DNA from: Methanotrichaceae archaeon
Lineage (GTDB): Archaea; Halobacteriota; Methanosarcinia; Methanotrichales; Methanotrichaceae
Assembly (NCBI GenBank): GCA_963803145.1
Contig: CAWDLW010000022.1
Span: 1 to 30,155 of the forward strand
Direction: 5' to 3'
DNA length: 30,155 nt
Within the stretch, counting starts at the first letter, position 1. Every line of letters starts with the position of its first letter. The notes beneath the pieces are model-generated. The model was given only the letters and a program-made list of their open reading frames with translations. It ran no database searches and had not been told where the DNA came from. Of this stretch, positions 4,865-28,839 are shown one piece after another. The translations under genes and the position numbers were made by a program.

Positions 4865-4951
4865 AAGAATATGTGAAAGGCTAACGCTTCAATAGCGAGC
4901 ATATTCAAAGCGAGCTAAAATACTTCCTCTTATTCGAACTGGCGCAAGAAA

Positions 4952-5031
4952 ATAGTAATAGTAAATTAGTAGTGATAGTAAATTAATTAAGGTTGTAAAA
5001 CAATATTGAATTACTTTGAGGAGTTGATGAA
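4952..5031 (+). promoter_or_regulatory. Conserved upstream cassette, copy 1 (TAGTAAATTAATTAAGG...TTACTT..GAGGAGTTGATGA)
   Basis: Aligns with the regions upstream of 7221 and 8194. TATA-like TTAATTAA plus RBS. Confidence 0.6.
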
Positions 5032-6621: not shown

Positions 6622-7009
6622 ATCCGCATCCCAGAATCGAACTGTTGCGACTTCTGTGTCATCATCCAAAGCTTCGACCAATCTATCAAACTTAATGCCG
6701 ACAGGTCAGAGTTCGAAGAATGTGGTTATAAACCTGACTGCAAAGAATATTGCTTTTGATAAGAATAGCATCACAGTGCCTGCAGGAGCGCATATCAAAG
6801 TGAACTTCGATAACCAGGATAACGGAATCCAGCATAACATCGCCTTCTATACAGATGCCTCTGCCTCAAAGCTCATCTATGTTGGAGCGATTATTACAGG
6901 CCCTAAGGAGATCACCTATGCCTTTGATGCACCGACCACACCCGGGACGTACTTCTTCAGATGCGATGTTCATCCAACGGTCATGACAGGCCAGTTTGTT
7001 GTGGAGTAA
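6566..7009 (+). CDS. Ser/Thr linker plus cupredoxin domain; probably the +1-frame C-terminal part of the 5032 quinoprotein
   Basis: No signal peptide. AKNIAF...QHN...CDVHPTVM is intact. It overlaps the 5032 ORF end. Deleting one base near 6565 gives IAFRLGMP-GVSSQSMM... Confidence 0.75.
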   Translation, partial: GVSSQSMMSTAKTNVSMDKSASQNRTVATSVSSSKASTNLSNLMPTGQSSKNVVINLTAKNIAFDKNSITVPAGAHIKVNFDNQDNGIQHNIAFYTDASASKLIYVGAIITGPKEITYAFDAPTTPGTYFFRCDVHPTVMTGQFVVE

Positions 7010-7048
7010 ATCGAAATTTCAGTCCACAGGCAATTGAAATTTCGTTTC

Positions 7049-7080
7049 AGGGGCACTTGGCCCCTTTCCCTCTTATTTTT
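7049..7080 (+). terminator. GC hairpin plus T-rich tract after the cupredoxin segment
   Basis: AGGGGC-ACTTG-GCCCCT then TTCCCTCTTATTTTT. It is preceded by a 10-bp inverted repeat CGAAATTTCA/TGAAATTTCG (7012-7044). Confidence 0.55.
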
Positions 7081-7142
7081 ATAATATCTCTGAACCCTCA
7101 TTCTGAGCGTCAGGACATTAATCAAATCATGGCTTTTATGCG

Positions 7143-7220
7143 TAGTAGTAATAGCAAAATAGTTAAAGGAGTATAGCGAAATAGTTAATACTCTAATGAA
7201 TTACTTCGGAGGTTGTTGAG
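7143..7220 (+). promoter_or_regulatory. Conserved upstream cassette, copy 2, with palindrome GAGTA-N15-TACTC (7169-7193)
   Basis: TAGCAAAATAGTTAAAGGAGTA...TACTC...TTACTTCGGAGGTTGTTGAG-ATG. Confidence 0.6.
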
Positions 7221-7988
7221 ATGATAAACGAGATCAAAAAGCTTGGTTTGATAATACTATCTCTAGTAATGCTGGCGGTCCTAACCTTGCCTGCATGTAC
7301 AGCACAGACGAGTACAAGTGGTATGCCAACGATAATGATAACTTCGCCAAAAGAGGGAGCAACGATTCCTGCAGGCAATGTCACAATAATGGTCAATGTC
7401 ACGAACTTTAAGCTGGTGAATAAGCTTGGCCAGGCAAATGTTGCTGGCGAGGGCCACGTCCATTACTACATTGATGTCGCAGTTCCAAAGACACCTGGCA
7501 AGCCTGCAACTACGGCCGTAGGCACATTTGCTCCCACACTTAATACAACCTGGATCTGGCCAAATGTTATGCCCGGCAAACATAACTTCTCAGTCCAGCT
7601 TGCGAACAATGACCATACTCCTTTGATTCCGCTGGTCTATAATACAGTCAATGTTACAGTCGTGGCCAATACAACCTTGAAGACGATGGCGGTACAGAAT
7701 ATTGCTATAGGTCTCATAGCCAAGAATATAGCTTTTAACACTTCCACGATCACTGTTCCTGCTGGAGCCAACATCACTGTGAACTTCGATAACCAGGATA
7801 CATACGTACCTCACAACTTCGCCGTCTATACTGATTCATCCGCTACAAAGACCATATTCCAAGGGAAGCAAATTACCGGCCCAGCTAAAACATCATATAC
7901 ATTCACAGCGCCTTCCCAGGCTGGGACCTACTTCTTCAGATGCGATGTTCATCCAACGCAAATGACTGGCCAGTTTATAGTGCAGTGA
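7221..7988 (+). CDS. Secreted protein: His-rich Ig-like (DUF4399-like) domain plus C-terminal cupredoxin
   Basis: Signal peptide, ITSPKEGATI, GHVHYYID...PGKHNFSVQLANNDH, then PHN...CDVHPTQM. GGAGG RBS. Confidence 0.85.
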   Translation: MINEIKKLGLIILSLVMLAVLTLPACTAQTSTSGMPTIMITSPKEGATIPAGNVTIMVNVTNFKLVNKLGQANVAGEGHVHYYIDVAVPKTPGKPATTAVGTFAPTLNTTWIWPNVMPGKHNFSVQLANNDHTPLIPLVYNTVNVTVVANTTLKTMAVQNIAIGLIAKNIAFNTSTITVPAGANITVNFDNQDTYVPHNFAVYTDSSATKTIFQGKQITGPAKTSYTFTAPSQAGTYFFRCDVHPTQMTGQFIVQ

Positions 7989-8005
7989 ATTAAGGCATTT
8001 TGTTT

Positions 8006-8029
8006 TGGGGCCCTCTGCCCCACTTTTTT
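8006..8029 (+). terminator. Hairpin plus T6 terminator
   Basis: TGGGGC-CCTCT-GCCCCA-C-TTTTTT, similar to the 7049 hairpin. Confidence 0.65.
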
Positions 8030-8121
8030 AGGAATATTTAGCGAATCTGAATCAGTCACTCCTTCTGGAGTTCCGTATAATGAAAATTTTCTCGTGTCAA
8101 ATCTTTCATGCAGGATTATAC

Positions 8122-8193
8122 TAGTAAATTAATTAAAGGAGTAATGCGATATACTAATTGCTCTACGGAGCTACTTCTAAGGAGTTGTTGAGA
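8122..8193 (+). promoter_or_regulatory. Conserved upstream cassette, copy 3, with palindrome GAGTA-N15-TGCTC (8139-8163)
   Basis: TAGTAAATTAATTAAAGGAGTA...TGCTC...CTACTTCTAAGGAGTTGTTGAGA-TTG. Confidence 0.6.
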
Positions 8194-8748
8194 TTGATAA
8201 AAAGTAAAATAGGCTTGATATTGCTGTCCCTAGTGGTATTAGCAATATTTATAATGCCAACATTTGCGCAGGCAAATAATAGTACCAATATGGGAATGAG
8301 CACTGGCAACATTGGTGCCAATACAGGATCCAACAATGTAGTCGTAAACATTATGGCAAAGAATATTGCCTTTAACATGAGCACGATTACAGCGCCTGCT
8401 GGCGCTCAAGTTACTGTCAACTTCAATAATCAGGATTCCGGAATACAGCATAACATTGCCTTCTATACAGATTCCTCTGCCGCAACGACCATTTACAAAG
8501 GCCCGATAACCGCGGGATCAAACATGACCACGTTTACATTTACTGCGCCATCCACGCCAGGTACCTACTTCTTCAGATGCGACGTCCATCCAACTCAAAT
8601 GATCGGCCAGTTTGTGGTAACGCCCATTACAGGTTCCAATACTGGATCTAACACAGGATTAAATACTGGCAGCTCAGGCTCCTCTGGCTCAAGTTCCTCC
8701 GGTTATAGTTCCTCGAGTTCAGGTGGATCTTACGGCTCTGGTTATTAA
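8194..8748 (+). CDS. Secreted single-domain cupredoxin with Ser/Gly-rich tail
   Basis: TTG start at 8194 chosen by analogy with the 7221 upstream region. Signal peptide, QHN...CDVHPTQM, and a GSNT/SSG low-complexity C-terminus. Confidence 0.88.
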   Translation: MIKSKIGLILLSLVVLAIFIMPTFAQANNSTNMGMSTGNIGANTGSNNVVVNIMAKNIAFNMSTITAPAGAQVTVNFNNQDSGIQHNIAFYTDSSAATTIYKGPITAGSNMTTFTFTAPSTPGTYFFRCDVHPTQMIGQFVVTPITGSNTGSNTGLNTGSSGSSGSSSSGYSSSSSGGSYGSGY

Positions 8749-11169: not shown

Positions 11170-12256
11170 TATAGTCATTCTCCCAACTTTTTACCTTATA
11201 AACTGCTTTATCCAAGACTTAGAGTATCCATCTTTATTGGAATAAAATATTTGTAAAGCGCAATCTTGGGCATCCTCAATAGCTTCATCAAAATCAGTAT
11301 ATTTTGATATCTCTCTTTTAAAATCCTTCCAACCGAACTCTATAGGATTTAAATCAGGGGAATATGGCACGTTATATATTAAATGGATATCAAGTTCGTG
11401 GGCTAATGCCCTAAACTTCTTAGCTAGATGTATTCTAGCATTATCTAGGACAATACATATTGGTCTCATAATATTGTTACTTCTCAATTTTTGGGCGAAG
11501 ATCATTAAATCTTCTTTCTTGGATGAGTGAGAGACCATAACTTCATCATTTCCATTCAATGCAATGAACCCAAAAACAGTTCTAGACCTAACTTTTCCAG
11601 GTTGATAATTTAGCATATGGGTGTTTAAAACCCTGCGTGTATTAGGTCGCTGTTGCAAAGAGCTTTCATCAAGGAATCCAATAATAGGTTCTTTGACTGT
11701 TGTTATTACTGAATCTATCCTTTTTTTAGAAAACTTTCTGCATTAACAGGCCTCTTATTATTTCTAATATATGGTTTACCATATTTGACTTTCTTTATTG
11801 ATCTTAAAATCTTCCAACCACCTTTATACGAATATTCTACGCCTCTTGTGTCTTTTGCATATTTTATTACCTCTTTTATAGTCATTCCTTTGTCCTCAAT
11901 CTCTTCGATAATTTTATCCCATTCATCAAAAGATATCATTGGTTCTTTGCCGTTTCTATTCTGTGGTATCAATCCATCATATCCTTGTTTGTTCCAATCG
12001 CTTAGCCAATTCTTTATTGTCTTTTCACTTCGTTTAAGAATATCAGCTACTATATATACATTCTTTCCTTCGTATAAATGTATTATCGCTAGTAGCCGTT
12101 CTTTAATTCTTATGTTTCTCTCATCTTTATACAATTGATCTAATTCTACCTTCGAGATATGTCTTACAATTACAGGTTTCCTGCCCATGAACGGCTATAT
12201 CGTATATTAATTATTTAAGGGTATCTATGAGGTAAAAATTACGTGGATTAACTATA
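11170..12256 (-). mobile_element. IS630-family element, copy 1 (1083 bp plus flanking TA duplication)
   Basis: Imperfect ~31-bp terminal IRs: TATAGTCATTCTCCCAACTTTTTACCTTATA versus the reverse complement TATAGTTAATCCACGTAATTTTTACCTCATA. TA at both ends. HTH orfA plus DDE orfB. Confidence 0.92.
11191..12188 (-). CDS. IS630 transposase in two frames (orfA 12188-11715; orfB reached by a -1 shift at A7G, 11720-11727)
   Basis: orfA is HTH-like (KERLLAIIHLYEG). orfB carries the FLDES, VLDNARIH and YSPDLNPIE DDE motifs. Junction is CTA AAA AAA GGA TAG. Confidence 0.9.
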
Positions 12257-14011: not shown

Positions 14012-15631
14012 CTACATCGTAGTTTGCGTCTTATTCCCTGGAAGCCCAAAGGCAACGATGTAGCCACCTGCGTTAGTAGTCTGACCGCCGCCTGTAGGCA
14101 CGAGCAGCATGCCGTTTCCAATCGATGGTCCGCCTATTCCAACCTGTGCACCAACGTTGAACTCCCACAGTTCCTTGCCGGTATCAGCATCCAGTGCCAT
14201 TAGGATTCCTGAGGATATCTGCGGTGTTTCCGTTGGGCCGCCGAAGTCGGCGCTGTAATTATAAGGTACGCCCATGGAGGTGACGTGGCCTGCGAAGACT
14301 AGCCCGTTGGTCACCAGAGGCGAGCACCATGTTGGATACTCGGTCTTGTACTGCCACTTGATATTGCCTGTCTTGACATCGAGGGCGACGATAGATCCGT
14401 TCCCTATGCCGTTGGTCATGGTCTTGAAGTCAGGGATAACCGTCATTCCGGGTATGTTGAAGAAGATCATTCCCTGATTGCTAACAGCTGCGTATACTGT
14501 GCTGTTATCAAAGGCTGTGAAGTCTTCTATGCCATCGCCAGATCCAGGCCAGGTCGCATTGCCGGTTTTTGAGGGTGTGGAATTTTCATTATACAACACA
14601 GCCAAATTTCTCCACCACATTGGCTTTCCCGTAGCCGCATCGAGGGCAGCTATATCTCCTCTCTTGTCATGGCCTATGACCAACTTCTCCTGAGTCCCGT
14701 TCATATTCACTGTGATCAAGTTGGTTCCCCAGGCCACGTCCCAATCGTGTGTATCAGGATATTTTGCATTGAAGATAGAGCCCTTGGCTACAAAGGGTGT
14801 AGCCCAGAGAACCTTTCCATCGGTTATGTTAACAGCTATGACGTTGCTGGAGTAATTGTTATACCCAGGCCTTGTAGATGCATCGAAGTCTGGCGCAGCA
14901 TTTCCTACAGGTATATAGACTATGCCTTTATCTGTATCAATGGCTCCGCCTGTCCAGGCATCCGCTCCGCCATTCGTGCTGTTATTCAGAGCTCCGGTAA
15001 CCCAGGGGCCGACTGCAAGTGGGATCTGCCAAAGCATCTTTCCTGTCTTCTTATCAAGACCCGTCAAAGAGCCCCTCTCAGGGAAACCGAAGGGCGGCAG
15101 ATCTCCGAGAGCTGATCCAGCTACAACATAGTTCTTCCAGATGAGCGGAGGGGCAGAAATCCTGAAGGCTCCGCCTAATGGTCGCAGCGGCTGGGATTCC
15201 CAGATCTTCTTACCAGTATTCGCATCAAGGGCGACGATAGTCCCAGCGCCGCCTGTGGGCGCATATATGATGCCGTTCTCATAAGTAATGCCATGCGAGG
15301 TTGTTGATCTGGGGAGTTTCACTATAGCCGGAACATTTGGAGTAAACTTCCACTTCGTTAATCCAGTATTCAGGTCAAACGCAATAACCTGCATTAAGGC
15401 ATTGGCCTGAGTATAGCCTGTGTTTCCAACGATCAGCGGAGGGTTCTCAATTGTATTATTGGTGTTGAGTATCCACTTAACTTGCAGCTGATTTACATTA
15501 TTTTTGCCTATTATCGTCTGAGGGCTGTGCCTGGACATGGCGCTATCATAGTTCGTCATTGGCCAGTCCTGGGCAGATACTACTGCTATAGCCAGCAGTG
15601 AGATCAAGGCCAGCAATAATAATTTTTTCAT
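14012..15631 (-). CDS. Second secreted PQQ-binding beta-propeller dehydrogenase-like protein
   Basis: GGAG RBS, signal peptide, DWPMTNYD..SRHSP, ALDxxTGKxxW repeats, GSALGD, GGADAW, YIPVGNAAP, RPGYNNYSS and DTHDWD. Confidence 0.87.
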   Translation of the reverse strand: MKKLLLLALISLLAIAVVSAQDWPMTNYDSAMSRHSPQTIIGKNNVNQLQVKWILNTNNTIENPPLIVGNTGYTQANALMQVIAFDLNTGLTKWKFTPNVPAIVKLPRSTTSHGITYENGIIYAPTGGAGTIVALDANTGKKIWESQPLRPLGGAFRISAPPLIWKNYVVAGSALGDLPPFGFPERGSLTGLDKKTGKMLWQIPLAVGPWVTGALNNSTNGGADAWTGGAIDTDKGIVYIPVGNAAPDFDASTRPGYNNYSSNVIAVNITDGKVLWATPFVAKGSIFNAKYPDTHDWDVAWGTNLITVNMNGTQEKLVIGHDKRGDIAALDAATGKPMWWRNLAVLYNENSTPSKTGNATWPGSGDGIEDFTAFDNSTVYAAVSNQGMIFFNIPGMTVIPDFKTMTNGIGNGSIVALDVKTGNIKWQYKTEYPTWCSPLVTNGLVFAGHVTSMGVPYNYSADFGGPTETPQISSGILMALDADTGKELWEFNVGAQVGIGGPSIGNGMLLVPTGGGQTTNAGGYIVAFGLPGNKTQTTM

Positions 15632-16151: not shown

Positions 16152-17238
16152 TATAGTTAATCTCCTAGCTTTTTGCACTAAGAAATCGCTCCACCCAGGA
16201 CTTTGAATATCCATCCTTTTTGGAATAAAATATTTCTAAAGCGCAATCTTGGCTAGCTATAATAGCTTCATCGAAATCAGTGTATTTGGCGATCTCTCTT
16301 TTGAAATCCTTCCAACCGAATTCTATAGGATTCAAATCTGGTGAATAGGGGATATTATAAATTAAGTGAATATCGATTTCCTCAGCTAGTTTTCTAAATT
16401 TCTTGGCCAAATGAATTCTAGCATTATCTAAAAGTATACAAATTGGCCTCATAATATTATTATTTCTTATATTTTGAGCAAATGCCATCAACGCTTCCTT
16501 CTTAGAGGAGTTGGAAACCATAACCTCATCATTGCCATTTAATGCTATAAATCCAAAAATAGTTCTTGATCTAACCTTTCCAGGTTTATAATTTATTAAA
16601 TGAGTGTTTAAGACTCTACGTGTATTAGGGCGCTGTTGTAAAGAGCTTTCATCAAGAAATCCTATAACAGGATCAGTAACAGTGGTCAGCACTGATTTTA
16701 TCCTTTTTTAAAAAACTTTCTGCATCTGCAGGCCTCTTTTCATTTCTGATGTATGGTTTCCCATACTTAACTTTTTTCACTACTCTTAAAATTCGCCAGC
16801 CATATTTATATGAAAAATCTATACCTCTTGTATCCCTTACATATTTTAATACGTCTTTTATCGTCATTCCTTTGTCTTCAATTTCTTTAATAACTCTATC
16901 CCATTCATCAAGAGACATCTTTGGCTTTTTGCCATTTCTATTCTTTGGTGTCAATCCATTATAGCCTTGATTATTCCATCTGCTTAACCAATATTTTATT
17001 GTCCTCTCGCCCCTTTTTAAAATATCAGCTACCTCATATACGTTTTTCCCTTCATATAAATGTATTATTGCCAATAACCGTTCCTTAATCCTTAGATCAG
17101 TCTCTTTTTTATATAATTTATCAAGGTCTATCTTTGATATATGCCTAATTATTATAGGTTTTCTACCCATGCCTATGTATTTTCACGCATTAATTATTAA
17201 ATGTATCTATAGGGCAATAAGCTCAATGATTAACTATA
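16152..17238 (-). mobile_element. IS630-family element, copy 2 (1083 bp plus flanking TA duplication), diverged from copy 1
   Basis: IRs TATAGTTAATCTCCTAGCTTTTTGCACTA versus the reverse complement TATAGTTAATCATTGAGCTTATTGCCCTA. TA at both ends. ORFs are paralogous to copy 1. Confidence 0.92.
16165..17170 (-). CDS. IS630 transposase in two frames (orfA 17170-16673; orfB in the +1 frame, junction T6A6 at 16704-16715)
   Basis: Same HTH and DDE motifs (FLDES, LLDNARIH, YSPDLNPIE). Junction is AGT TTT TTA AAA AAG GAT. Confidence 0.85.
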
Positions 17239-17292
17239 TATGTTCAAATCTAATAATTGACATTGAATAATCTTTCCGATAGAGGATGCAAT

Positions 17293-18390
17293 ATGAAAAC
17301 GTATCATTTACATCAGGCCCTATTGGTTCTAATTTTATTAGCCTGTCTATCAGGAGCCTATGGGCAATATAATACGCCAACAAGCGGCTATTCAACTGTC
17401 ACTCCTGTTTCAGGAACGGCCCAAAATAATGCATCGCAGTATTCACAGTACTATCAAATGCTCAATGGCCCGGTTCCGAGCAACCATATTAGCGCACCTC
17501 AACAATTTGACATAACTGGCAACATGCCTTCCACAGTCTTTTTCGGCAATCAGGCACAACCCGTAAATTACGCTCAGTATGCATCAAGTCCTTCGTACAC
17601 AGGAAGCAGTTCTCTTTGGGTACAAGGTTCAACTAGCTGGGCACAATATGCTGTCGTTCCCCAGGGAGCAACGGTAAATCTATTGGCTATCACTCCCACG
17701 CCAGGCAGCGGCTACTTTTACTTCACAGATTCCAATGGCCAGATGTACACTTATAACTACTACTTCTATCCCTACAGCCGCATGACTCTCTATGCAGATA
17801 ACCCTGGGCGGCATGTATTATCCTTCGCAGTTAATGGCATGATGAGTAACCAAGTGACAATAGATGTGACAGGCGTTTACACGCCGCCAACCAACTACTT
17901 ACCGCCAGCCTACTATCCGACATACTATCCGAATTACTACTCCCCAGGTTACTACTATCCAGCCTACTACTATCCTGGTTACTTCTATCCCGGATACGGT
18001 GGAGGAATTGTCATGCCCGTTGGAAGTGCTACAACACCAACCAGCGGAGCTACTGGTACAACTGGCGGAACAACAACAGGTACGACTGGTGGAACAACCG
18101 GCGAATCAACTCAAGGAGCTACTACAGGTACAACTAGCGGAGCAACTCAAGGGGTAAACCAAGTGGCAAATCAGGCGGCAAATCAAATATCAAAGCAAGG
18201 GGCAACTCAAGGTGAGGCTCAAGAGATAAATCAAGCGGTAAATCAAGTGGCGAGTCAAATATCAAAACAAGGAGCAACAGGCAATGTAGCCGGTATAGGA
18301 ACTAATACAACAATTGGAGCTGATCCAACTGGCGGGATTGCCGGTCAAAATTTAAGCAAGGAAAATGCTAGTGAATCCAAGACGAAGTAA
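17293..18390 (+). CDS. Secreted/surface protein with Tyr-Pro, Thr-Gly and Gln-Ala low-complexity tail
   Basis: GAGG RBS and signal peptide. The core LWVQGSTSWAQYAVVPQGA...YADNPGRHVLSF..NG..SNQVTIDV resembles a family I recall from Methanothrix. Confidence 0.75.
   Translation: MKTYHLHQALLVLILLACLSGAYGQYNTPTSGYSTVTPVSGTAQNNASQYSQYYQMLNGPVPSNHISAPQQFDITGNMPSTVFFGNQAQPVNYAQYASSPSYTGSSSLWVQGSTSWAQYAVVPQGATVNLLAITPTPGSGYFYFTDSNGQMYTYNYYFYPYSRMTLYADNPGRHVLSFAVNGMMSNQVTIDVTGVYTPPTNYLPPAYYPTYYPNYYSPGYYYPAYYYPGYFYPGYGGGIVMPVGSATTPTSGATGTTGGTTTGTTGGTTGESTQGATTGTTSGATQGVNQVANQAANQISKQGATQGEAQEINQAVNQVASQISKQGATGNVAGIGTNTTIGADPTGGIAGQNLSKENASESKTK
17893..18280 (+). repeat. Intragenic repeats: (YYP)n, (GTT/GAT)n and two NQ..NQ....QISKQGAT units
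   Basis: TACTATCC-type repeats at 17911-17991. CAAATATCAAA(G/A)CAAGG(G/A)GCAAC occurs twice. Confidence 0.75.
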
Positions 18391-19993: not shown

Positions 19994-20041
19994 AAATTAA
20001 ATATAGAAAGTCGGCATAGCTCCAAATAATTGGGAGGGAAT

Positions 20042-20965
20042 ATGAAACATATAGGAATAGCTATCTTCGTTTTGCTATTGGCAATCTTAATTCCTATTGG
20101 AATTATAAAATGTAAAACATCGGATAATTACCCTCTGCCAAATGTTTCAAATATTGAGGTTAAGACAGTCCATGTGGGGGATATAGACATTGCTTACAAA
20201 ACCTTTGGCCAGGGCGAGCCACTAATAATGATTATAGGCAGCAGCTCAACTATGGATCTCTGGTCCCCGGAACTTCTTAGCAAGCTATCCTCAAACTATA
20301 AGGTCATCATCTTCGATAATAGAGGCATGGGATACACCACCGCACCACCTGGCAACTTCTCCATTGAGCAGTTTGCTGAAGATACCTCTGGGCTAATGGA
20401 CGCGTTAGGAATAAAGAGGGCCCACATCTTGGGCTGGTCCATGGGCTCATTTATAGCCCAGGAGCTTGTTTTAAACCACCCTGATAAGGTGGACAAGCTA
20501 GTATTATATGCAAGCGATTGTGGCGGATCTCATGCTATTCCTCCATCTGCAGAAGTACTACAGGAGCTGACCAACACAACAGGAAGCCCGAGCGAAAGAG
20601 GAATGAGGCTTTTTGGTCTCCTATTCCCTGAGGAATGGCTTAAAAGTCATCCAGATTTCTATAGGCAATTCCCAATTCCAAAGGAGACTACATCTCCAGA
20701 GAACATAGCTAGGCAAAATGCAGCCATTGGATATTGGGCGGGAACATACGATCGGCTTACAAACATAAGCAGGCCTACGCTCGTAATAGTAGGGACTGAA
20801 GATAAGATTGCGCCTCCAGAGAACTCACTGATACTGGCGATGCAAATACCGGGGTCCTGGTTAATCAGGTTTGAAGGAGCCGGACACGGCCTGATTTATC
20901 AGTTCCCTGATGAGTTTTCAAAGATAGTAGAAGATTTTCTCGATATGCCGAACGGGGGGCTATGA
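20042..20965 (+). CDS. Alpha/beta hydrolase with N-terminal signal/anchor
   Basis: FDNRGMG, GWSMG nucleophile elbow, GTEDKI acid and GAGHG His. Hydrophobic N-terminus and GGAGG RBS. Confidence 0.92.
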   Translation: MKHIGIAIFVLLLAILIPIGIIKCKTSDNYPLPNVSNIEVKTVHVGDIDIAYKTFGQGEPLIMIIGSSSTMDLWSPELLSKLSSNYKVIIFDNRGMGYTTAPPGNFSIEQFAEDTSGLMDALGIKRAHILGWSMGSFIAQELVLNHPDKVDKLVLYASDCGGSHAIPPSAEVLQELTNTTGSPSERGMRLFGLLFPEEWLKSHPDFYRQFPIPKETTSPENIARQNAAIGYWAGTYDRLTNISRPTLVIVGTEDKIAPPENSLILAMQIPGSWLIRFEGAGHGLIYQFPDEFSKIVEDFLDMPNGGL

Positions 20966-21003: not shown

Positions 21004-21495
21004 TTGATAATCAATAGAGAACTATGGATAATTAAATCGGATCATCAGAAATTGCTGGACGGCATTGCCCAGCTCGAGAAGAATGCCGATGGCTCCAGAG
21101 AAGATAAATTCAATGCCGTGATGAAGGATAATCTGGATCATATGAGGGCCGAAGAGGATGTATTTTATCTTGCGATTAATCAGCAGGCTCCGGAGGCTAT
21201 GATGAAATCCATTGAGGCGCACAACATCGCCAGAATCTCAATGGATGATCTCTCATTAACGCCAAAGGATGATCCATGGTGGGTAGCTAAGCTGCAGGTC
21301 TTCAGGGACATATCTTTAAGCCATATCCGGGAGGAAGAAGGCCCTATATTTGATATCGCCAAAAGCATTATAGACAACGCTGAGCTTCAAGAGATGGGCC
21401 TGAGATTCCAGCATGCAAAAGGAGCCAGTACACTGCATCAACCCACGTCAGAAGCATCAATAGGCAGCGGCAGGTGGAGTGGTTTTAGCACCTAA
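21004..21495 (+). CDS. Hemerythrin/HHE cation-binding domain protein
   Basis: IKSDH, HMRAEEDVFY, EAHN and HIREEEGPIF di-iron motifs. Start codon uncertain. Confidence 0.85.
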   Translation: MIINRELWIIKSDHQKLLDGIAQLEKNADGSREDKFNAVMKDNLDHMRAEEDVFYLAINQQAPEAMMKSIEAHNIARISMDDLSLTPKDDPWWVAKLQVFRDISLSHIREEEGPIFDIAKSIIDNAELQEMGLRFQHAKGASTLHQPTSEASIGSGRWSGFST

Positions 21496-21615: not shown

Positions 21616-22356
21616 GTGGTTGGATTGAACGGATTCTTCAAGATCCTCCTTCTTTTGGCATTGATTCTAGGATTATCGACTTGTACGCAGGCAAGCGCAC
21701 CTTCGAGCCAGGGATTGCCTCCAGGCAAGCTGATAGATATAAAGAATGGTACGTTCAACCCAGACAACCTTACAGTCCCCCTTAATACGACTGTTACATG
21801 GGCCAACCACGATATGAACCCCATTGATGTAGTTGCTGACGATAGCTCATTCGACTCTGGAGAGATTTACCCCAATGGTTACGAGTATGATTACATCTTC
21901 CTGCAGCCCGGAGCGTACAGGTATCATTCTAAAGAGAAACCATCCATGCAGGGGCAGGTAATTGTTGCCAATGCAAACGGCACTCTGCCCAAGGTTACTG
22001 AGCTGCCTGCGTCTACTGCGCTGGCCAACAAGACCGCTCAAGCCAATAAAACAACTCAGACACAAAAGATAACCATAGGACTTGTGGCCAAGAACATAGC
22101 CTTCAACACCAGCAAGATCACTGTGCCCGCTGATGCTCAGGTAACTATCAACTTCAATAATCAGGACAGCGGCGTGCCCCATAACTTTGCAGTCTATCAA
22201 TCATCCGCAGCCACAAACGCTATATTCAAGGGGCAGATAGTGACCGGCCCCGCTAAGACCACATATACATTCACCGCTCCAGGCAAGCCGGGCACATACT
22301 ATTTCCAGTGCGATGTCCACCCAACTCAGATGAATGGTCAGTTTATGGTACAATAG
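21616..22356 (+). CDS. Secreted two-domain cupredoxin (domain 1 lacks Cu ligands, domain 2 intact)
   Basis: Signal peptide. Domain 1 is a plastocyanin-like fold ending YRYHSKEKPSMQG. Domain 2 is PHN...CDVHPTQM. Start is GTG 21616 or TTG 21625. Confidence 0.87.
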   Translation: MVGLNGFFKILLLLALILGLSTCTQASAPSSQGLPPGKLIDIKNGTFNPDNLTVPLNTTVTWANHDMNPIDVVADDSSFDSGEIYPNGYEYDYIFLQPGAYRYHSKEKPSMQGQVIVANANGTLPKVTELPASTALANKTAQANKTTQTQKITIGLVAKNIAFNTSKITVPADAQVTINFNNQDSGVPHNFAVYQSSAATNAIFKGQIVTGPAKTTYTFTAPGKPGTYYFQCDVHPTQMNGQFMVQ

Positions 22357-22520
22357 ACTCTAAAATTCTAAACCTGAGAATTCTGAATGAATCGTCCTTA
22401 GAATTTATTGAGTCCATTCATTTTTGGCATATTGGTTTGGTTAGAGGTTACCATAAAATTTATAATGACTTACTGCCCATAATATTGCTAATAGTAAATG
22501 GATTTTCGGGATATGAAACG

Positions 22521-24125
22521 GTGATCAAGCTTACAGTTCTGCTAGCTGCCTTTGCTGTCATGTTCTTGGTGTTAGTGCTCTACATAGTGCCGCAGCAGGG
22601 TGGGCTGATATCTTCTACGGAACTGCAAACATCTAACCTTCAAGGGGTACCCCCGCAGCTCGAAGAGAATGTGCCCATCCAGGAGGTAGATTTGGGCGGA
22701 CAGGGCAGGTCGATCTTCATCGCCGTTGCAATGCTTGGCCACATTCTCCTCGCCAATCTGCAGCTCGGAGGAGCATGGATCATTCCTCTCACCGAATACC
22801 TTTACCTCAGATCAGGAAAGAAGCGATTTAGGAGACTCGCCAGATCCCAGACGCTTTTCAACGTCATATTCTTCAGCGTAGGGGCTACATGGGCTCTCGG
22901 AGGAATGCTCTTCTTCGCAGGCCTCTTTCCGGTCTTTACCCAAAACATATTCCATATCTACTGGTGGCCTCTATTTATCGAGGCCCTTACCTTCGCAGGT
23001 GAAATATTCTTCCTTTACTCTTACTGGTACACATGGGATAGGATCAGTGATGGGTGGCATCAGTTCCTTGGCTGGGCTCTCGCTGTTGATGTTTTCCTGC
23101 AGATGTTGATGATAGATACCCTGGCAGCTGGCATGCTGACCACAGGGGACAGTACCATAGTATGGGGATATTCGGGAATCCTCACAATGGCATGGAACAC
23201 ACTCATAGCCTGGTGGAGCAACTCAACCGTCTGGTTCCTCACATTCCACAGGCTGGCTGGAGCGGTATCTGTCTATGGTTACATAATAGCTGCACTGGCC
23301 ATGTTCCATTATCTGGATAGAAAGGATCAAGCCTCCAGGGCTTATTGGGACTGGGTAGCCACATACGGCATGGCCTTTGGGCTGCTGGGCCTCGCGTTTC
23401 AGCCCGGGTTCGGGCTCATGTACATGACGCAAATAAATCTCAACCAACCAGCGGCGTTCAACTACATGATGCACGGCCCGAGGGCCTGGGAGATGCTATG
23501 GATGGTAGTGCTTCTCTCAACGCTGCTCATAGTCTCGCTTATATACTTCATAGATCGCCATAAAGGGACACTCTCTAAACAAAGGACTTTCAACATCTAC
23601 CCAATGTGGAAGATACTCCTAGCCTTTGCCGCCTTGGCTTGGTTCATCAACGCGAACCCTGCTTGGTTTGGGACACTCTTCGTAAATAGTCCGAGTGCAG
23701 TGGCCAACCCAGCTGGCGCAATGGTCTATAAGTACATAGCCCTATTTACAATAACAATAATAGCATCATTGGTCGTGGGATCTGCGGTTTTCATACTTGG
23801 GAGCCTCGATGAGCCTGATTGGGGACACATCTCCAAATCTTCCAGGGCGGCTGCCATCATTTCGGCCATCCTGGCTATGTGGGTAATCATAGTCATGGGA
23901 TTCGTGAGGGAATCGGCCAGATCCCCCTGGACTATCTTTCAGATTGTACCCGTGCCTGGAGGGACTGATTACCCGACGCCGATATCCGTATGGGCTATAT
24001 TCCTGATCTGGTTTGGCCTGCTAGGTTTCTCGATTACAGTGTTCTGGTTCGTCTCCAAAGTAACCGCAGAGCATCCTGAAGATGTCGATGTGCTTGAACC
24101 AGCCGCTCAAGCATGGAAGGATTGA
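22521..24125 (+). CDS. cydA: Cytochrome bd oxidase subunit I-like protein (CydA superfamily, non-quinol OR-N-like type), copy A
   Basis: GHILLAN (H19-equivalent), IEALTFAGE (E99/E107-equivalents), FHRL (H186), GAMVYK (candidate Met ligand) and GFVRESARSPW (E445/R448). Multiple TM helices. GTG start at 22521 chosen by alignment with copy B. Confidence 0.82.
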   Translation: MIKLTVLLAAFAVMFLVLVLYIVPQQGGLISSTELQTSNLQGVPPQLEENVPIQEVDLGGQGRSIFIAVAMLGHILLANLQLGGAWIIPLTEYLYLRSGKKRFRRLARSQTLFNVIFFSVGATWALGGMLFFAGLFPVFTQNIFHIYWWPLFIEALTFAGEIFFLYSYWYTWDRISDGWHQFLGWALAVDVFLQMLMIDTLAAGMLTTGDSTIVWGYSGILTMAWNTLIAWWSNSTVWFLTFHRLAGAVSVYGYIIAALAMFHYLDRKDQASRAYWDWVATYGMAFGLLGLAFQPGFGLMYMTQINLNQPAAFNYMMHGPRAWEMLWMVVLLSTLLIVSLIYFIDRHKGTLSKQRTFNIYPMWKILLAFAALAWFINANPAWFGTLFVNSPSAVANPAGAMVYKYIALFTITIIASLVVGSAVFILGSLDEPDWGHISKSSRAAAIISAILAMWVIIVMGFVRESARSPWTIFQIVPVPGGTDYPTPISVWAIFLIWFGLLGFSITVFWFVSKVTAEHPEDVDVLEPAAQAWKD

Positions 24126-24297
24126 GGTGTCACTCGATGTGCGATTCGAGATTGACATTTAATGAGGCGGAAGAATATACTGCGGATAGCAGCGCTAGAG
24201 ATGACATCTCTGTTCATAAGGGGTTTCACGCATTGTCAATCACTCCAAAGGATAGTGGTCTCATAATCAATGCTCATGTAGAGAGGGAATGGGCCAT

Positions 24298-25893
24298 ATG
24301 ATAAAGCTGGCAGCCTTAGTACTATTGCTGGTGGCCTTCTTCCTGATGCTGATCCTGTATATCGCTCCACAACAGGGAGCGTTTATATCTTCAACTGCCA
24401 TCAGTGCGGGCGATCTTGACGCGGTAAAACCGCCATTGCAAGAAAATCAGCTGCCCCTTCAAACTGTAGATTTGGGAAGCCAAGGAAGATCCATATTCAT
24501 GGCTATAACCCTAACAGGCCACATCCAACTGGCGAACCTAGCGCTGGGCGGGTCCTGGATAATTGTGATAACTGAGTTCCTTTTCCTGAGATCCAGAAGA
24601 GAGCGCTATAGAAATCTGGCCAAATCCATGGCCTTCTTCAGCGTTATACTATTCTCAGTCGGTGCTACCTTTGGTGCGTCAGCACTACTTTTCATTTACT
24701 CACTTTATCCTGTCTTCATGCTTAATATCTTTCATATCTATTGGTGGCCCATTTTCGCAACGCTTCTACTATGGAGCGCTCAAATTTTCTTCCTTTGGCT
24801 ATATTTCTACACATGGAAGAGCATGAGACCCTCATCGCACTTATTCATAGGCCTCGGTTATGCCATCGCATCCTTCTTCCAGGCTTTAATGATACAGATG
24901 ATGGGATCAGGAATGTTGACGCCTAATAATACTGAGATTACATGGGGCTACATTGGCGTTCTGACAATGGACTATAGAACACTACTCTCATGGTGGTTCA
25001 ACCCAACCCTATGGGCTCTCCAGTTCCACAGTCTGGCAGCGGCCATATCCTACTTCGGCTTCCTTATAGCCGTATTATCCATGTTCCACTATCAGGATAA
25101 GAAGGGCAGTCCAAATGCTCAGAAGTATTGGGACTGGTCGGGATCTTACGGCATGGCCTGGGGCCTGGCAGGACTCGCAGTTCAGCCCATCCTAGGTGTG
25201 TTCTTCATGAGGCAGATAATAGGTGCCAGTCCCACGGCCTTCCTGATGATAATGCATGGTCCTAGGGCCTGGGAGATGCTATGGATGGCGGCGCTGCTTT
25301 CAATCCTCATAATGACCTCAGTAGTTTATTTTATCGACCGCAGGGGGGCAATATTGGATCGGATCGAAACTAAGAACATAAGCCTTACACTTAAGGCCTT
25401 ACTGGCAGTTTCAGCGATCTCAGCCTTTATATTGGTAAACCCGGGTTGGCTTGGTGCCGCGTTCAGGGATGATCCCACAGCCTGGATCAATCCATTAGGC
25501 AAGATGATTTACAAATACATAGCCCTCGCCGTATTATCCGTAGTAAGCATTATCGTGGTCATAATAGATGTCTTTACTCTGGGCGTTGCCAAAGAGCAGG
25601 ATTGGGGCAACCTTCACAGGAGTTCTCGTATCTCCGGCATCTTCGCAGGGGTTCTAGGAATGTGGATTGTGATGACTATGGGGTTTGTCAGGGAATCGGC
25701 CAGAGCCCCTTGGACCATTTGGAAGATTATACCTGTGCCGGGAGGAATGAATGATCCTACACCAATATCTTTGGGAAGCATCTTCATAGTATGGGGGATA
25801 CTTCTTGCCTTCTTACTGGCGGTCTTCTGGTATGTGTCGAAGGTGACTGCAGAGGTAACTGTGAAGCACCACGAGGAACCAGAGGAGGAATAG
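24298..25893 (+). CDS. Second CydA-like paralog (CydA-prime-like), copy B
   Basis: Colinear with copy A: GHIQLAN, FHSL, GKMIYK and GFVRESARAPW. The two Glu positions read T and Q (FATLLLWSAQ). Confidence 0.82.
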   Translation: MIKLAALVLLLVAFFLMLILYIAPQQGAFISSTAISAGDLDAVKPPLQENQLPLQTVDLGSQGRSIFMAITLTGHIQLANLALGGSWIIVITEFLFLRSRRERYRNLAKSMAFFSVILFSVGATFGASALLFIYSLYPVFMLNIFHIYWWPIFATLLLWSAQIFFLWLYFYTWKSMRPSSHLFIGLGYAIASFFQALMIQMMGSGMLTPNNTEITWGYIGVLTMDYRTLLSWWFNPTLWALQFHSLAAAISYFGFLIAVLSMFHYQDKKGSPNAQKYWDWSGSYGMAWGLAGLAVQPILGVFFMRQIIGASPTAFLMIMHGPRAWEMLWMAALLSILIMTSVVYFIDRRGAILDRIETKNISLTLKALLAVSAISAFILVNPGWLGAAFRDDPTAWINPLGKMIYKYIALAVLSVVSIIVVIIDVFTLGVAKEQDWGNLHRSSRISGIFAGVLGMWIVMTMGFVRESARAPWTIWKIIPVPGGMNDPTPISLGSIFIVWGILLAFLLAVFWYVSKVTAEVTVKHHEEPEEE

Positions 25894-25950: not shown

Positions 25951-27225
25951 TTGTACAAGCAAATTTTTGTGGCTCTTGACGGATCAATACACTCTGATCT
26001 TGCTAAAGACGCAGCTCTTTCACTGGCGGAAAAAGGAAGCAGCGTTCATCTGATAGGCTGCCATGCTTATGCAGCCAGCCTTCATCGTACCCGGTTCGGC
26101 GATATGGAGCCAGGACTCCCTGAAGGCTATAGCGGTGAAGGTCTGGTTAACCTTAGGAGGACCCACGAAGGTCTAATAGGAGAGGGCTTGCAGCTAATAT
26201 CGGACTCCTACCTGGAGCCGCTTGTTAAAGGAGCTATTGATAAAGGAATTGAATATGAATGTGCAACTCCCGAGGGACGAAATTATATACAGATCCTCAG
26301 GGCTGCTGGAGAGCGAAAAGCAAATCTTCTCGTCATGGGTGCTCAAGGGCAGGGACGAGCTGAGGGCCTGGGAAGTACGGCCGAACGCGTTCTCCTTTAT
26401 TCTCAGGGAATGGATGTTTTACTGATGCGTAGTCCCTGGAGCTTTGCCGGCAAATCTATTCTCGTTGGCATAGATGGCAGCGTTGATAGCTATTATGCCA
26501 TGATGCGGGCTATAGAGATAGCTAAAGCCTTCAATGCCCAGATCGAAGCGGTTTCAGTCTACGATCCCTTCTTCCATTCGATGGTTTTTAAAAGAATATC
26601 GAAATCATTACCTGAGAAGGCTAAGGAGCATTTTGATTTATCAGCCCAAGAGAAGATTCACGACGATGTAATCGATGAAGGGTTGAAGAGGCTTTACAGC
26701 GACGGGCTGAAGAAGGGCATACGCCTGGCTGATGCTGAGGGTATAAAGGCCCGTGCAGAGGTGCTGGCAGGCAAGGTATGTGCCCAAATTCAGGATTTTG
26801 TCTCTAAGAAAGATATTTCTCTTATCGTTTTGGGTCGTTGGGGACTTCATAAGGAGCAGGAATCAATGATAGGTTCAAATGCTTTGAGGCTTGCCCGATC
26901 GAACCTCCCAAGCGTGCTGATTGTATCTACGGGGGCTTCTCCAGACAATCCAGACAGAATTTCGGGCCAAATTTCTGCAGCAGAGGACGGTGGTGCTTTG
27001 GACATCAATTATGCAAAAAAAGGAGTTGAGCCGCTTGACGCCGAGGTGGTGGTAATGCATAAGACAAAAAGATTTGCTCCGGATTTTCACAGGCATATGC
27101 TTAGAGGCAAGATTCAAGGAAAGATAATCAATATAGGTGAAAGTATATTGATCTATACGGTCGATGAGACCGTTCCTGCCGGTCCTGTAAGAGTGACTGA
27201 ACGAACCAGGCTGGAGGTGCGCTGA
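25951..27225 (+). CDS. Tandem universal stress protein (2x USP) with extra C-terminal beta domain
   Basis: IFVALDGS, LLVMGAQG..GLGSTAERV, ILVGIDGS and LIVLGRWG..IGSNA. GGAG RBS and TTG start. Confidence 0.9.
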   Translation: MYKQIFVALDGSIHSDLAKDAALSLAEKGSSVHLIGCHAYAASLHRTRFGDMEPGLPEGYSGEGLVNLRRTHEGLIGEGLQLISDSYLEPLVKGAIDKGIEYECATPEGRNYIQILRAAGERKANLLVMGAQGQGRAEGLGSTAERVLLYSQGMDVLLMRSPWSFAGKSILVGIDGSVDSYYAMMRAIEIAKAFNAQIEAVSVYDPFFHSMVFKRISKSLPEKAKEHFDLSAQEKIHDDVIDEGLKRLYSDGLKKGIRLADAEGIKARAEVLAGKVCAQIQDFVSKKDISLIVLGRWGLHKEQESMIGSNALRLARSNLPSVLIVSTGASPDNPDRISGQISAAEDGGALDINYAKKGVEPLDAEVVVMHKTKRFAPDFHRHMLRGKIQGKIINIGESILIYTVDETVPAGPVRVTERTRLEVR

Positions 27226-27227: not shown

Positions 27228-28151
27228 TTGCAGATCCTATCCCTGCAGGGCATCTCAAAATCTTATGGTAAAAATAGAGTCCTCGATGGCATAGACCTTG
27301 AAGTCTATAAAGGAGAGATATTTGTCCTCCTGGGATCCAATGGCTGTGGAAAATCAACGCTTCTACGGATAATGGCGACTTTGCTCAAGCCTGATTCAGG
27401 TGAAGCATTGCTCTTCGGCTTGAAAAGCAGTCCAGAAATCCTGAAGCATGTTGGGATCATGTTCGACCATACAGCCCACTGGGATAAGCTCACTGGATAC
27501 GAGAATGCCTGGATGTTTGCCCGATCTTACGGCCTTCCCAATAATGTGGCGGCTTCAAGGCTTGATAGCCTCTTCAAATGGATAGGACTTTCTGAAAGAC
27601 GCGATGAAGCTGTTACAGCCTATTCCTACGGCATGAGGCGCAAGCTGTCGCTTATAGAGGCACTTGTACATGAGCCCGATCTGCTTCTGATGGATGAGCC
27701 CTCAATGGGACTGGATTATACATCCCGTTTGGCTATTTATTCTCGTCTTCGGCAGCTGGCAGAGAAGGGCATAGCAATAATATTGTCTACCAACGATGTA
27801 AGCGAGGCCGAGCTCCTGGCCAGCAGAGTCGCCCTCCTAAAAAATGGGCATATTATTGCCCTAGATCAACCTGAGAATCTGGTGTCATCGCTCAATGCTC
27901 TGACCAGGATCGAACTGAAGCTGGCTGTGCCCATATCCATAGAATCCATAAGAGGAATCAGAGGAATAGTGAAGGTAGAAGCGAATGGTGATGAGTTAAG
28001 GATACTTGCGGCCTCAAATCATGATTCACTATCGTCAGTAGTGAAAGAGGTAACAACGCTTGGGGGAGTGATTCAGAAGATCGAGGTAAAGGAGCCCAAT
28101 CTTGGAGATGCATTCCTGAAGTTTGCCGGGGAGGACATCGATGCTGCCTAA
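27228..28151 (+). CDS. ABC-2-type transporter ATP-binding subunit
   Basis: Walker A GSNGCGKST, signature YSYGM, Walker B LLMDEP and C-terminal PNLGDAFL. Confidence 0.93.
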   Translation: MQILSLQGISKSYGKNRVLDGIDLEVYKGEIFVLLGSNGCGKSTLLRIMATLLKPDSGEALLFGLKSSPEILKHVGIMFDHTAHWDKLTGYENAWMFARSYGLPNNVAASRLDSLFKWIGLSERRDEAVTAYSYGMRRKLSLIEALVHEPDLLLMDEPSMGLDYTSRLAIYSRLRQLAEKGIAIILSTNDVSEAELLASRVALLKNGHIIALDQPENLVSSLNALTRIELKLAVPISIESIRGIRGIVKVEANGDELRILAASNHDSLSSVVKEVTTLGGVIQKIEVKEPNLGDAFLKFAGEDIDAA

Positions 28152-28839
28152 CGCTCTATGGCAGGAGGAGATTATTGAGGAGTGCAAGAGCAGAAGATCT
28201 CTTATGACAAAGCTATTGCTTCCTATGATCCTTGTAGGCCCATTGGCCTTGGCCTGGGTTCCACCTGCTATGAGGTCCGGCGGCATGGCGCTGGCAGTGA
28301 TATTTATCGGCATCTTCGGATCATCCATCGGCATTGTAGGTCTGAGAGATTCAAAGATGCTGGAAAGACTGGCTGTGCTCCCGCTTCGTCCTGCAGTCGT
28401 TGTATCCAACTATATTCTGGGAAGATCCATATTTATGGGCGTTCAGCTGGCCCTGCCTCTTGCCTTAATATTATTCGTAGGCCAGTCCCGATCGGTTTCT
28501 ATGAGTTCTATATCGTGGGTCATTCTTTGCTATGTAGCCGCACTGGTATCCGCCAGTGCCCTTGGAACAGTTGTGGCACTTATTTCTCGCTCATCCGGAG
28601 AAGTACACCTGTATGCATTCTTGGCAGTTATTGCAGTTGCCGGCCTTTCCGGCATCCTCCCAGGAACTGGTTCAATTGTCTTGGCCAGGGCTATCTCACC
28701 TTTCTGGCAGCTATCGAATACACTGCTATTTTCGTGGGGTGCATCGGACCTGTATATGCCTGCTGCCGCGCTAATTTCGGGCGCTGTAATTCTCCTAATA
28801 GCCCTGCTCATATCTCCAAGGCTATTCCAGCTAGGTTGA
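28141..28839 (+). CDS. ABC-2-type transporter permease
   Basis: About 6 TM segments and RDSKMLERLAVLPLRP. ATG 28141 overlaps the ATPase end and has a GGAGG RBS. Confidence 0.85.
   Translation: MLPNALWQEEIIEECKSRRSLMTKLLLPMILVGPLALAWVPPAMRSGGMALAVIFIGIFGSSIGIVGLRDSKMLERLAVLPLRPAVVVSNYILGRSIFMGVQLALPLALILFVGQSRSVSMSSISWVILCYVAALVSASALGTVVALISRSSGEVHLYAFLAVIAVAGLSGILPGTGSIVLARAISPFWQLSNTLLFSWGASDLYMPAAALISGAVILLIALLISPRLFQLG

Follow-up and report, generated by a model that had tools for sequence, protein, structure and literature searches.

The closest described relatives of the genes reported here are the OR-N-type bd-like oxidases, which, in the available text of a preprint by Murali, Gennis and Hemp, lack a quinol site and heme c, retain His19 throughout, and include “a” and “b” subfamilies suggested to pair with one another, with most “a” subfamilies keeping Glu99 and Glu107 while the “b” subfamilies do not (bioRxiv 10.1101/2021.01.16.426971). 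The paired subfamilies are OR-N3a/3b, which share about 50%, OR-N4a/4b, and OR-N5a/5b; several independent duplications are inferred, very few archaeal members were known, and OR-N-type oxidases have, according to other literature consulted, never been characterized biochemically. Here we describe a pair of CydA-like genes, A and B, which lie adjacent to one another and on the same strand in a 30,155 nucleotide (nt) stretch of DNA (the window; contig CAWDLW010000022.1) from a Methanotrichaceae (Methanothrix-family) methanogen. On balance, we lean toward reading A and B as the two large subunits of a quinol-independent bd-like (OR-N-type “CydAA”) oxidase, with A as the catalytic subunit and B as its non-catalytic partner, that would be fed by a cupredoxin and would serve heme-b-based O2 scavenging.

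The central pattern, tandem CydA paralogs of which one lacks the glutamates, is already in print, and A/B is a new example of it. An earlier interpretation of the window made from the letters alone (the sequence-only reading) had implied novelty, which does not hold: paralogs without CydB, the a/b glutamate pattern, a lost quinol site, and duplication on repeated independent occasions all appear in the available text of the preprint (bioRxiv 10.1101/2021.01.16.426971). Like the OR-N a/b pairs described there, A and B lie side by side without cydB and show neither a quinol site nor a heme c motif, A with and B without the counterparts of Glu99/Glu107; their 52% protein identity over 513 residues compares with the “50%” shared by OR-N3a and OR-N3b. 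Unlike the OR-N enzymes of that description, the A/B family is mostly single-copy (43 of 54 loci, obtained by scanning one genome per species, all of them metagenome-assembled genomes (MAGs) and none from a named cultured strain), its a/b split lies within one tight family, and its hosts are methanogens, Asgard archaea, and Anaerolineae. The AlphaFold2 (AF2) model of A has 12 helices, against “typically 10” given for OR-N3 to OR-N5 and 14 for OR-N1 and OR-N2. Likened to the subfamilies by features, and not placed against OR-N reference sequences, the pair would at a guess belong with OR-N3; OR-N5 is unlikely, since it is described as adjoining Alternative Complex III in Nitrospirales, unlike here. 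A full-text search of one library found the names OR-N3 and OR-N4 in no paper besides this preprint.

Three other systems bear comparison. The archaeal CydAA′ of Caldivirga maquilingensis (qOR4a/qOR4b) likewise consists of two paralogs without CydB, the second of which lacks the channel glutamates and keeps His19. In the preprint text, however, qOR4a keeps the quinol site and uses quinol, whereas A and B have no Q-loop, and qOR4b does not conserve His186 and Met393, whereas B keeps both positions (the Met as a candidate). Canonical CydAB (E. coli bd-I and bd-II, Geobacillus, mycobacteria) shares with A/B the fold, His19, Glu99, Glu107, and His126 in transmembrane helices (TM) 1–4, His186, and the Glu445/Arg448 region; A/B differ from it in having no Q-loop with Lys252/Glu257, no nearby CydB, an extra N-terminal helix followed by an outside linker, and two extra helices at the place of the Q-loop. 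The OR-N1/OR-N2 proteins of Nitrospira and Nitrospina (NIDE0901 type) are, as far as the available text goes, also putative non-quinol bd-like oxidases built from CydA paralogs, their function unconfirmed; they have 14 helices, are thought to be fed by cytochrome c, and occur in aerobic nitrite oxidizers, whereas A/B have a candidate cupredoxin donor and anaerobic hosts. A search judged by titles and the beginnings of abstracts found no published account that places the A/B family, with a cupredoxin, in methanogens or Asgard archaea; PMC7382037, in the part available, deals with ordinary bd oxidases. These genomes may well be included in the supplements of Murali et al. At least two of the MAGs, UBA303 and UBA9297, bear names from a series presumably present in the GTDB release that those authors analyzed.

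Active-site residues and predicted fold of A and B

Gene A (22521..24125, plus strand) and gene B (24289..25893, plus strand) each encode 534 residues, an “a-type” and a “b-type” CydA-like subunit, respectively. They are separated by 163 nt, are 58% identical at the nucleotide level, and both match the CydA family of Pfam (PF01654; 63 and 71 bits, cut-off 26.2). The longest open reading frame (ORF) for A (22308–24125) begins at GTG 22308, runs into the upstream cupredoxin gene by 49 nt, and corresponds to the database version of the protein (P0001, 605 residues); we take the gene as 22521–24125 because the N-termini of relatives align at GTG 22521 (“MIKL...”; 26 of 26 aligned relatives). B starts at ATG 24289 or, alternatively, at ATG 24298. 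The sequence-only reading had noted tandem CydA paralogs without CydB, and this stands: PF02322 was found in none of the 31 window ORFs scanned with Pfam, and a CydB domain in none of 111 further ORFs (at least 260 residues, at most 4 kb from cydA) across the 54 loci. Rfam and tRNA scans of the window gave no matches.

A carries His74, Glu154, Glu161, His180, His243, Met401, and the motif Arg463-Glu464-Ser-Ala-Arg467; B carries His78, His184, His247, Met406, and Arg468-Glu469-Ser-Ala-Arg472, with Thr158 and Gln165 at the sites of the lost glutamates. The two sites lie within WWPLFIEALTFAGEIFF (A residues 148–164) and WWPIFATLLLWSAQIFF (B residues 152–168), and their codons, all on the plus strand, span 22980..23003 in A (Glu154, 22980–22982; Glu161, 23001–23003) and 24760..24783 in B (Thr158, 24760–24762; Gln165, 24781–24783), exactly the difference that had been read from the letters. 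A profile built from 26 family members matched CydA chains only in the Protein Data Bank (PDB) (four distinct sequences; best 5doq_A, E 6.6e-14) and placed the family motif WWPL..E......E, with high posterior probability, on PLFMETFAFFFEAIF of Geobacillus and PLAIEGLMAFFLESTF of E. coli. Because of this high-posterior alignment to solved CydA chains, Glu154 and Glu161 of A are assigned as the counterparts of E. coli Glu99 and Glu107, in agreement with the earlier assignment. The same alignment equates His74 with His19, His180 with His126, His243 with His186, and the RESAR motif with the Glu445/Arg448 region. Through His74, Glu154, and Glu161, A has the residues of the di-heme site (His19 plus Glu99/Glu107), whereas B alone does not, keeping His78 but having Thr158 and Gln165 in place of glutamate.

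The positions of His74, His243, Met401, Arg463, and Glu464 (A numbering) do not vary in any of the 84 sequences aligned, among them B and 10 distant relatives, which bears out the proposal that the histidines, the candidate Met, and RESAR are kept in both copies. The division into a catalytic A and a non-catalytic B, also proposed earlier, fits the residues of the two copies. As had been claimed for the quinol-site motif Q(P/K)xKLAAxE, the motif is missing from both proteins: QPAAFNYMM in A and SPTAFLMIM in B contain no Lys, and the Q-loop features Lys252/Glu257 are absent. QPAAFNYMM (A residues 309–317) forms a short helix (310–318 in the AF2 model) between two membrane helices, and E. coli CydA residues 240–382, the Q-loop region, have no counterpart in the family profile alignment. 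Neither A nor B contains a CxxCH motif.

The AF2 model of A (predicted local distance difference test score (pLDDT) 91.9, predicted template modeling score 0.92) agrees with the extra N-terminal TM and external linker of the sequence-only reading, comprising an extra N-terminal helix (2–25), a non-helical linker (26–61), and eleven further long helices. Helices 322–346 and 359–378 come before the Met-bearing helix, at the place of the Q-loop. By this model A has 12 helices of membrane length; a Kyte-Doolittle scan gives 10 hydrophobic segments. In a Foldseek search with the model, the top 10 PDB matches were all CydA chains (best 6rx4_A, E 7.6e-11; target-normalized TM-score 0.53–0.67, sequence identity 13%–18%), and CydB chains came next. 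B probably shares the fold of A, given their 52% identity.

The b-type proteins, here and in the Methanoculleus relatives described below, differ from the family at more than the two glutamates. Among the sites that are conserved across the other 42 family rows (single-copy or unassigned), the two b groups are both altered at Arg105 (to Asn), Glu154 (to Thr or Tyr), Phe158 (to Trp or Tyr), Glu161 (to Gln or Ile), and Tyr166 (to Trp or Phe), and further at Gln181 (to Leu), Ser250 (to Ala), Asn114, and Arg267. These changes amount to a coherent remodeling of the TM2–TM4 proton-path region, and the loss of the channel looks directed.

An A:B complex, modeling of which the sequence-only reading had suggested, was predicted from A residues 50–520 and B residues 54–524 with our own 84-row alignments for each chain, to which the calibration counts that follow apply roughly. 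The interface score ipSAE was 0.45, 0.33, and 0.45 in the three runs against 0.00 for the best of three controls, a verdict of weak support; the runs agreed in at least 90% of contacts, and partner pLDDT was at least 76. Of 157 solved complexes, 116 reach the ipSAE mark, as do 2 of 215 mismatched pairs, and the range up to 0.60 holds 18 of the 157 solved complexes and both passing mismatches. The suggested contact between A and B thus gained weak support, although the pass may reflect likeness to, or memory of, a similar complex, since solved CydAB structures exist.

Origin of the pair and distribution of the family

The best homologs listed are in Methanotrichaceae MAGs (86%, 86%, and 71%–74% identity). 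Among the 120 matches listed, 107 have the E...E pattern, 8 the B-type T/N...Q, and 4 E...Q, with 1 unmatched by the pattern. Among the 1.84 billion representatives of a library clustered at 50% identity, the family comprises three full-length ones (689, 621, and 571 bits), and the next full-length relatives score at most 248 bits; the family is tight and separate. Distant outliers carry the same ligand pattern (H / WP..E..E / H / G.M..K / RE..R) and include “b-like” forms of their own. The nearest outgroup, P0131, carries a cytochrome c domain according to a homology search with that protein (23 matches).

The archaeal loci belong to Methanotrichaceae, Methanosarcinales, Methanomicrobiales (Methanoculleus, Methanoregulaceae, Methanolinea), Methanomassiliicoccales, Thermoplasmatales, and Asgard archaea (Thor- and Promethearchaeota, Borrarchaeum), the others to Anaerolineae, one Atribacterota MAG, and one MAG labeled Christensenella. 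Copies were counted with a family hidden Markov model (HMM) over all six-frame ORFs of the 54 loci. A tandem pair was found in 11 loci, two from Methanotrichaceae (L001, L008) and nine from Methanoculleus/Methanomicrobiaceae (L026, L028, L030, L032, L034–L037, L040); three of the downstream copies are cut by a contig end and one upstream copy is frameshifted. The remaining 43 loci hold a single gene, several of them frameshift-split, and in five the contig ends at most 300 nt downstream. In every tandem pair the upstream copy is E...E and the downstream copy is not, the residues of the latter being T/N...Q in Methanotrichaceae and Y...I/V in the Methanoculleus relatives.

Two sequences combine features of both types. 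At L048 (7830–9574; Methanoculleus sp. UBA303) there is a single frameshifted b-like gene with no a gene within 8 kb, 77%–80% identical to b genes and 60%–62% identical to a genes (49% being usual between a and b); it is either a hybrid or the result of assembly collapse. The first 85 residues of the b-type protein P0030 match those of the a-type P0006 at 84 of 85 positions, and its next 85 residues match the b gene of L008 (L008:9630–11303) at 81 of 85; P0030 is either an a/b recombinant or an assembly collapse.

Phylogeny had been named beforehand as the decisive test of whether A and B are sisters, and three maximum-likelihood (ML) trees join them. The first, a quick IQ-TREE analysis (LG+C20 with posterior mean site frequencies) of 86 rows with ten distant outgroups, recovers a Methanotrichaceae a clade (9 rows, support 100) and b clade (10 rows, 100) joined with a Shimodaira-Hasegawa-like approximate likelihood ratio test (SH-aLRT) value of 94; for the Methanoculleus a and b clades, which include one long branch, the joining node has 93. 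A more careful tree of 49 rows, which omits three long-branch representatives, six outgroups, and near-duplicates, joins the Methanotrichaceae a and b clades at 97/92 (ultrafast bootstrap/SH-aLRT) and the Methanoculleus clades at 89/95, and the nodes that nest the Methanotrichaceae pair among single-copy genes have 97/99 and 97/95. Removal of the columns for A residues 100–185 (the trait region) left the topology unchanged (96 and 96). A and B are thus sister clades. Given its place among single-copy genes of Methanotrichaceae/Methanosarcinales, the pair arose inside this family and independently of Thermoproteota-type CydAA′ (qOR4a/4b), as the sequence-only reading had supposed possible; A/B and qOR4a/4b go back to separate duplication events.

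The duplication had also been called relatively recent, and this part of the earlier account does not stand. Synonymous sites between A and B are saturated (proportion of synonymous differences 0.756), and both copies have co-diverged over Methanotrichaceae lineages whose A orthologs are about 72% identical; the duplication is therefore lineage-specific but old. Relative to the orthologs of L001, the ratio of nonsynonymous to synonymous substitution rates (dN/dS) is 0.10 for B and 0.059 for A, which points to purifying selection on B and suggests that B is functional. The possibility that B is a decaying copy was rejected on this dN/dS value and the conservation of the ligand positions.

The exact 25-nt tract noted in the two genes is present as described, at 23481..23505 in A and 25264..25288 in B (both plus strand), and encodes RAWEMLWM at the beginning of a membrane helix. 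Four of these eight residues are single-codon residues. Redrawing of synonymous codons that left both proteins unchanged produced a run of at least 25 nt in 31 of 2000 draws (P = 0.0155). Of the 241 identical non-Met/Trp residues of A and B, 96 (about 40%) share their codon, with no local peak. The tract, in a conserved peptide rich in single-codon residues, seems mildly unusual and, on the redraw value, is weak as evidence for gene conversion; its interpretation as a gene-conversion scar was rejected, the P value being marginal and synonymous codon sharing low throughout.

The neighboring genes

Directly upstream of A lies a gene for a two-domain cupredoxin (21616..22356, plus strand; Pfam Cupredoxin_1 81.9 bits, Copper-bind 40.8 bits), secreted or anchored and the likely electron donor. 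Its hydrophobic N-terminal segment is followed by Cys23; domain 1 has no copper Cys, and a complete type-1 copper motif, H...C-x2-H-x3-M, is found in the C-terminal domain. This motif is preserved by all 17 aligned orthologs (one with x2 ahead of the Met), most of which are encoded directly upstream of cydA in Methanomicrobia and Thermoplasmatales loci. NCBIfam amicyanin/plastocyanin matches to the protein are below cut-off. A cupredoxin homolog occurs in 25 of the 54 loci, the upstream variant being that of Methanomicrobia and one Thermoplasmatales locus. Eighteen loci (Asgard archaea, Anaerolineae, Methanomassiliicoccales, and a few others) have no cupredoxin and carry, between cydA and the Usp gene described next, a gene for a cytoplasmic protein of about 240 residues with the motifs LGGLEIFEG and ARELFAFD.FH and only sub-threshold PNPOx-like Pfam matches; among them are L003, L007, L010, L016, L017, L024, L029, L031, L039, L042, L043, L047, and L051.

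Downstream of B, on the plus strand, follow genes for a cytoplasmic tandem-Usp protein of 424 residues (25951..27225; Pfam Usp 102.5 bits in two stretches), an ABC transporter ATPase of DrrA/NodI-like type (27228..28151; Pfam ABC_tran, NCBIfam drrA 231 bits, below cut-off), and an ABC-2 type permease (28123..28839; Pfam ABC2_membrane 26.9 bits, equal to the cut-off). In blastp comparisons of window proteins with all locus ORFs, combined with clustering, homologs of these three were found in 35, 23, and 17 of the 54 loci, respectively; the conserved core of the loci consists of cydA (or cydA-cydA′), the tandem-Usp gene, the ABC ATPase, and the ABC-2 permease, with Usp as the commonest neighbor. 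Locus L001 is syntenic with the window from the cupredoxin gene through an alcohol dehydrogenase gene. In five Asgard loci (L019, L021, L022, L025, L054) a NosD-like parallel beta-helix gene lies beside the ATPase and permease genes, which makes the transporter look NosDFY-like. The Usp protein of Anaerolineales loci (L016:10137–11507) ends in a PCP_red domain (PF08369, 56 bits); that of the window has a C-terminal extension of about 85 residues without a Pfam match.

In Methanoculleus and Methanoregulaceae MAGs, genes of siroheme-dependent heme synthesis adjoin the oxidase operon, upstream in L026, L030, L032, L037, and L048 and downstream in L049 and L052. They include an AhbA/B-like decarboxylase gene (L032:5230–6084; AhbB 169 bits, cut-off 125) and NirJ1/NirJ2/AhbC/AhbD-like radical-SAM/SPASM genes, the latter below equivalog cut-offs; no heme-synthesis genes of the Methanoculleus type were found in the window. 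Methanomicrobiales-type methanogens have been described as cytochrome-free. Genes of this kind beside the operon would suit an enzyme that needs heme.

Farther from the pair, the window contains a densely packed gene cluster for extracytoplasmic proteins of the copper and propeller kinds, recognized by Pfam only (3185–8748 and 14012–15631). It comprises genes for a 559 residue protein with four cupredoxin domains (3185–4864), a pyrroloquinoline quinone (PQQ)-like beta-propeller (5032–6621), three more cupredoxins (6542–7009, 7221–7988, and 8158–8748), and, on the minus strand, a second PQQ-like propeller (14012–15631). These proteins could feed the oxidase or be fed by it. Two copies of an IS630-family transposase gene (11188–12188 and 16165–17170, minus strand, about 80% DNA identity), each split into a helix-turn-helix ORF and a DDE ORF and both in direct orientation, flank about 4 kb with the second propeller gene. 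Just upstream of the cupredoxin gene are genes for a hemerythrin-HHE-domain protein (21004–21495) and a secreted alpha/beta hydrolase (20030–20965), for which no counterpart was found in the 54 loci at E 1e-6. The ORFs at 17257–18390 (377 residues) and 835–1728 (297 residues) have no Pfam match, and the former has no NCBIfam match either.

A putative cupredoxin-fed oxidase and its alternatives

In the reading that we favor, a quinol-independent oxidase assembled from A and B, a membrane-anchored blue-copper protein would deliver electrons at the outer face of the membrane to a b558-type heme (His243/Met401 in A, His247/Met406 in B), from which they would pass to the di-heme site of A (His74, Glu154, Glu464). 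O2 would be reduced there to water, with cytoplasmic protons supplied along a pathway through Glu161 and Glu154. B, with the same predicted fold and heme-ligand positions but with Thr and Gln for the carboxylates, would provide no proton feed to an active site; it may instead act as a CydB-like structural partner, possibly offering a second point of electron entry. The physiological role would be the scavenging of trace O2 in an oxygen-sensitive anaerobe. The pair would go back to the tandem duplication of a gene of which most relatives have one copy, and the same specialization has seemingly been repeated in Methanoculleus.

Several observations weigh against this reading. A weak second HMM stretch sets the E. 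coli/Geobacillus Met about 10 positions beyond Met401, and for this reason Met401 (Met406 in B) stays a candidate ligand of heme b558. The replacement of the cupredoxin by a cytoplasmic protein of about 240 residues in some loci fits poorly with an outside donor. Some single-copy genes from Methanoregulaceae (L006, L027, P0044, P0049, P0056, P0058) are E...Q, the second Glu alone being replaced, which suggests that this residue is dispensable in some members. As 43 of the 54 loci have one gene, a partner paralog is not required, and A could equally act as a homodimer; the A:B model, moreover, passed weakly. For the OR-N enzymes in general, subunit composition, function, and O2 affinity are described as unconfirmed in the literature consulted.

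A single ancient a/b split behind every b gene, with loss of b from many single-copy lineages and exchange between tandem copies making a and b look like sisters, is in our view unlikely. Approximately unbiased (AU) tests, in which the b group was defined after the tree had been seen, did not clearly reject a single b clade: p was 0.065 with 86 rows (log-likelihood difference 36.5), 0.10 with the 49 rows of the careful tree (34.0), and 0.038 without the trait region (40.7), the last not well under 0.05. Exchange between copies is plausible, given the a-like then b-like P0030 and the hybrid-looking L048 gene, and R105N and S250A are common to both b groups. Against a single split, however, the constraint costs the tree 34 to 41 log-likelihood units, each b clade falls with its own lineage's a clade in all three ML trees, and the replacement residues differ between the b groups (Thr/Gln versus Tyr/Ile); many lineages that nest between the two b groups would also need to have lost b, and recent conversion has left no sign in the window, where identical residues share a codon at only 40% in every stretch examined. 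A second, independent duplication in the Methanoculleus relatives is thus favored, but not proven.

That A and B form separate enzymes, a homodimeric oxidase A2 and a B2 with another role such as heme-based sensor or electron sink, seems improbable to us. The prevalence of the single-copy state, the retention of every heme-ligand position in B, the weak pass of the A:B model, and the 163 nt gap would all suit such an arrangement. Canonical CydAB and archaeal CydAA′ are, however, heterodimers of two proteins with this fold according to the available preprint text (bioRxiv 10.1101/2021.01.16.426971); each b gene with enough context (in the window and 11 loci) sits directly downstream of an a gene, the sole single b-like gene, that of L048, being frameshifted and hybrid, and the a and b trees mirror one another. 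We regard as very improbable a complex that is not an O2 reductase and instead uses another small oxidant (NO, H2O2) or exchanges electrons with the outside through heme b and copper. Extracellular electron uptake is known for Methanothrix, the hosts are strict anaerobes by their organism names, and the window is unusual in having four more cupredoxin genes clustered with two for PQQ-like propellers; the preprint names the OR-N donors only as “alternative” (bioRxiv 10.1101/2021.01.16.426971), and OR-N function is elsewhere called unconfirmed. In the solved bd oxidases of E. coli and Geobacillus, however, all hemes lie near the outer face and form no transmembrane wire, which counts against electron exchange. 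The complete di-heme site and proton-channel residues, kept in A and in 107 of the 120 matches listed, also argue for O2, and the preprint defines the superfamily by its di-heme oxygen-reduction site (bioRxiv 10.1101/2021.01.16.426971).

Returning to the cupredoxin-fed A/B oxidase, a more far-reaching version of it is possible though doubtful. A single-gene and presumably homodimeric ancestor would have been duplicated independently in two methanogen lineages, each downstream copy losing the same carboxylates and neighboring residues in a replay of the way in which CydB may have come from CydA; the product would be a cupredoxin:O2 oxidoreductase, which in Methanomicrobiales would be served by their own siroheme-dependent heme synthesis.

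What is less ordinary about the A/B family than its central pattern is that it is mostly single-copy in strict anaerobes, with a probable second convergent a/b split, a candidate blue-copper donor, and co-located heme-synthesis genes. It places an OR-N-type oxidase, together with a candidate copper-protein donor, in methanogens and Asgard archaea, which are regarded as strict anaerobes. The transition from a single-copy gene to an a/b pair, probably a repeated one although the evidence for this is not firm, offers a compact case in which to test how an asymmetric catalytic/structural pair emerges from a symmetric homodimer. If active, the enzyme would be a dedicated O2-scavenging system and could help to explain the survival of methanogens in oxygenated soils and sediments.

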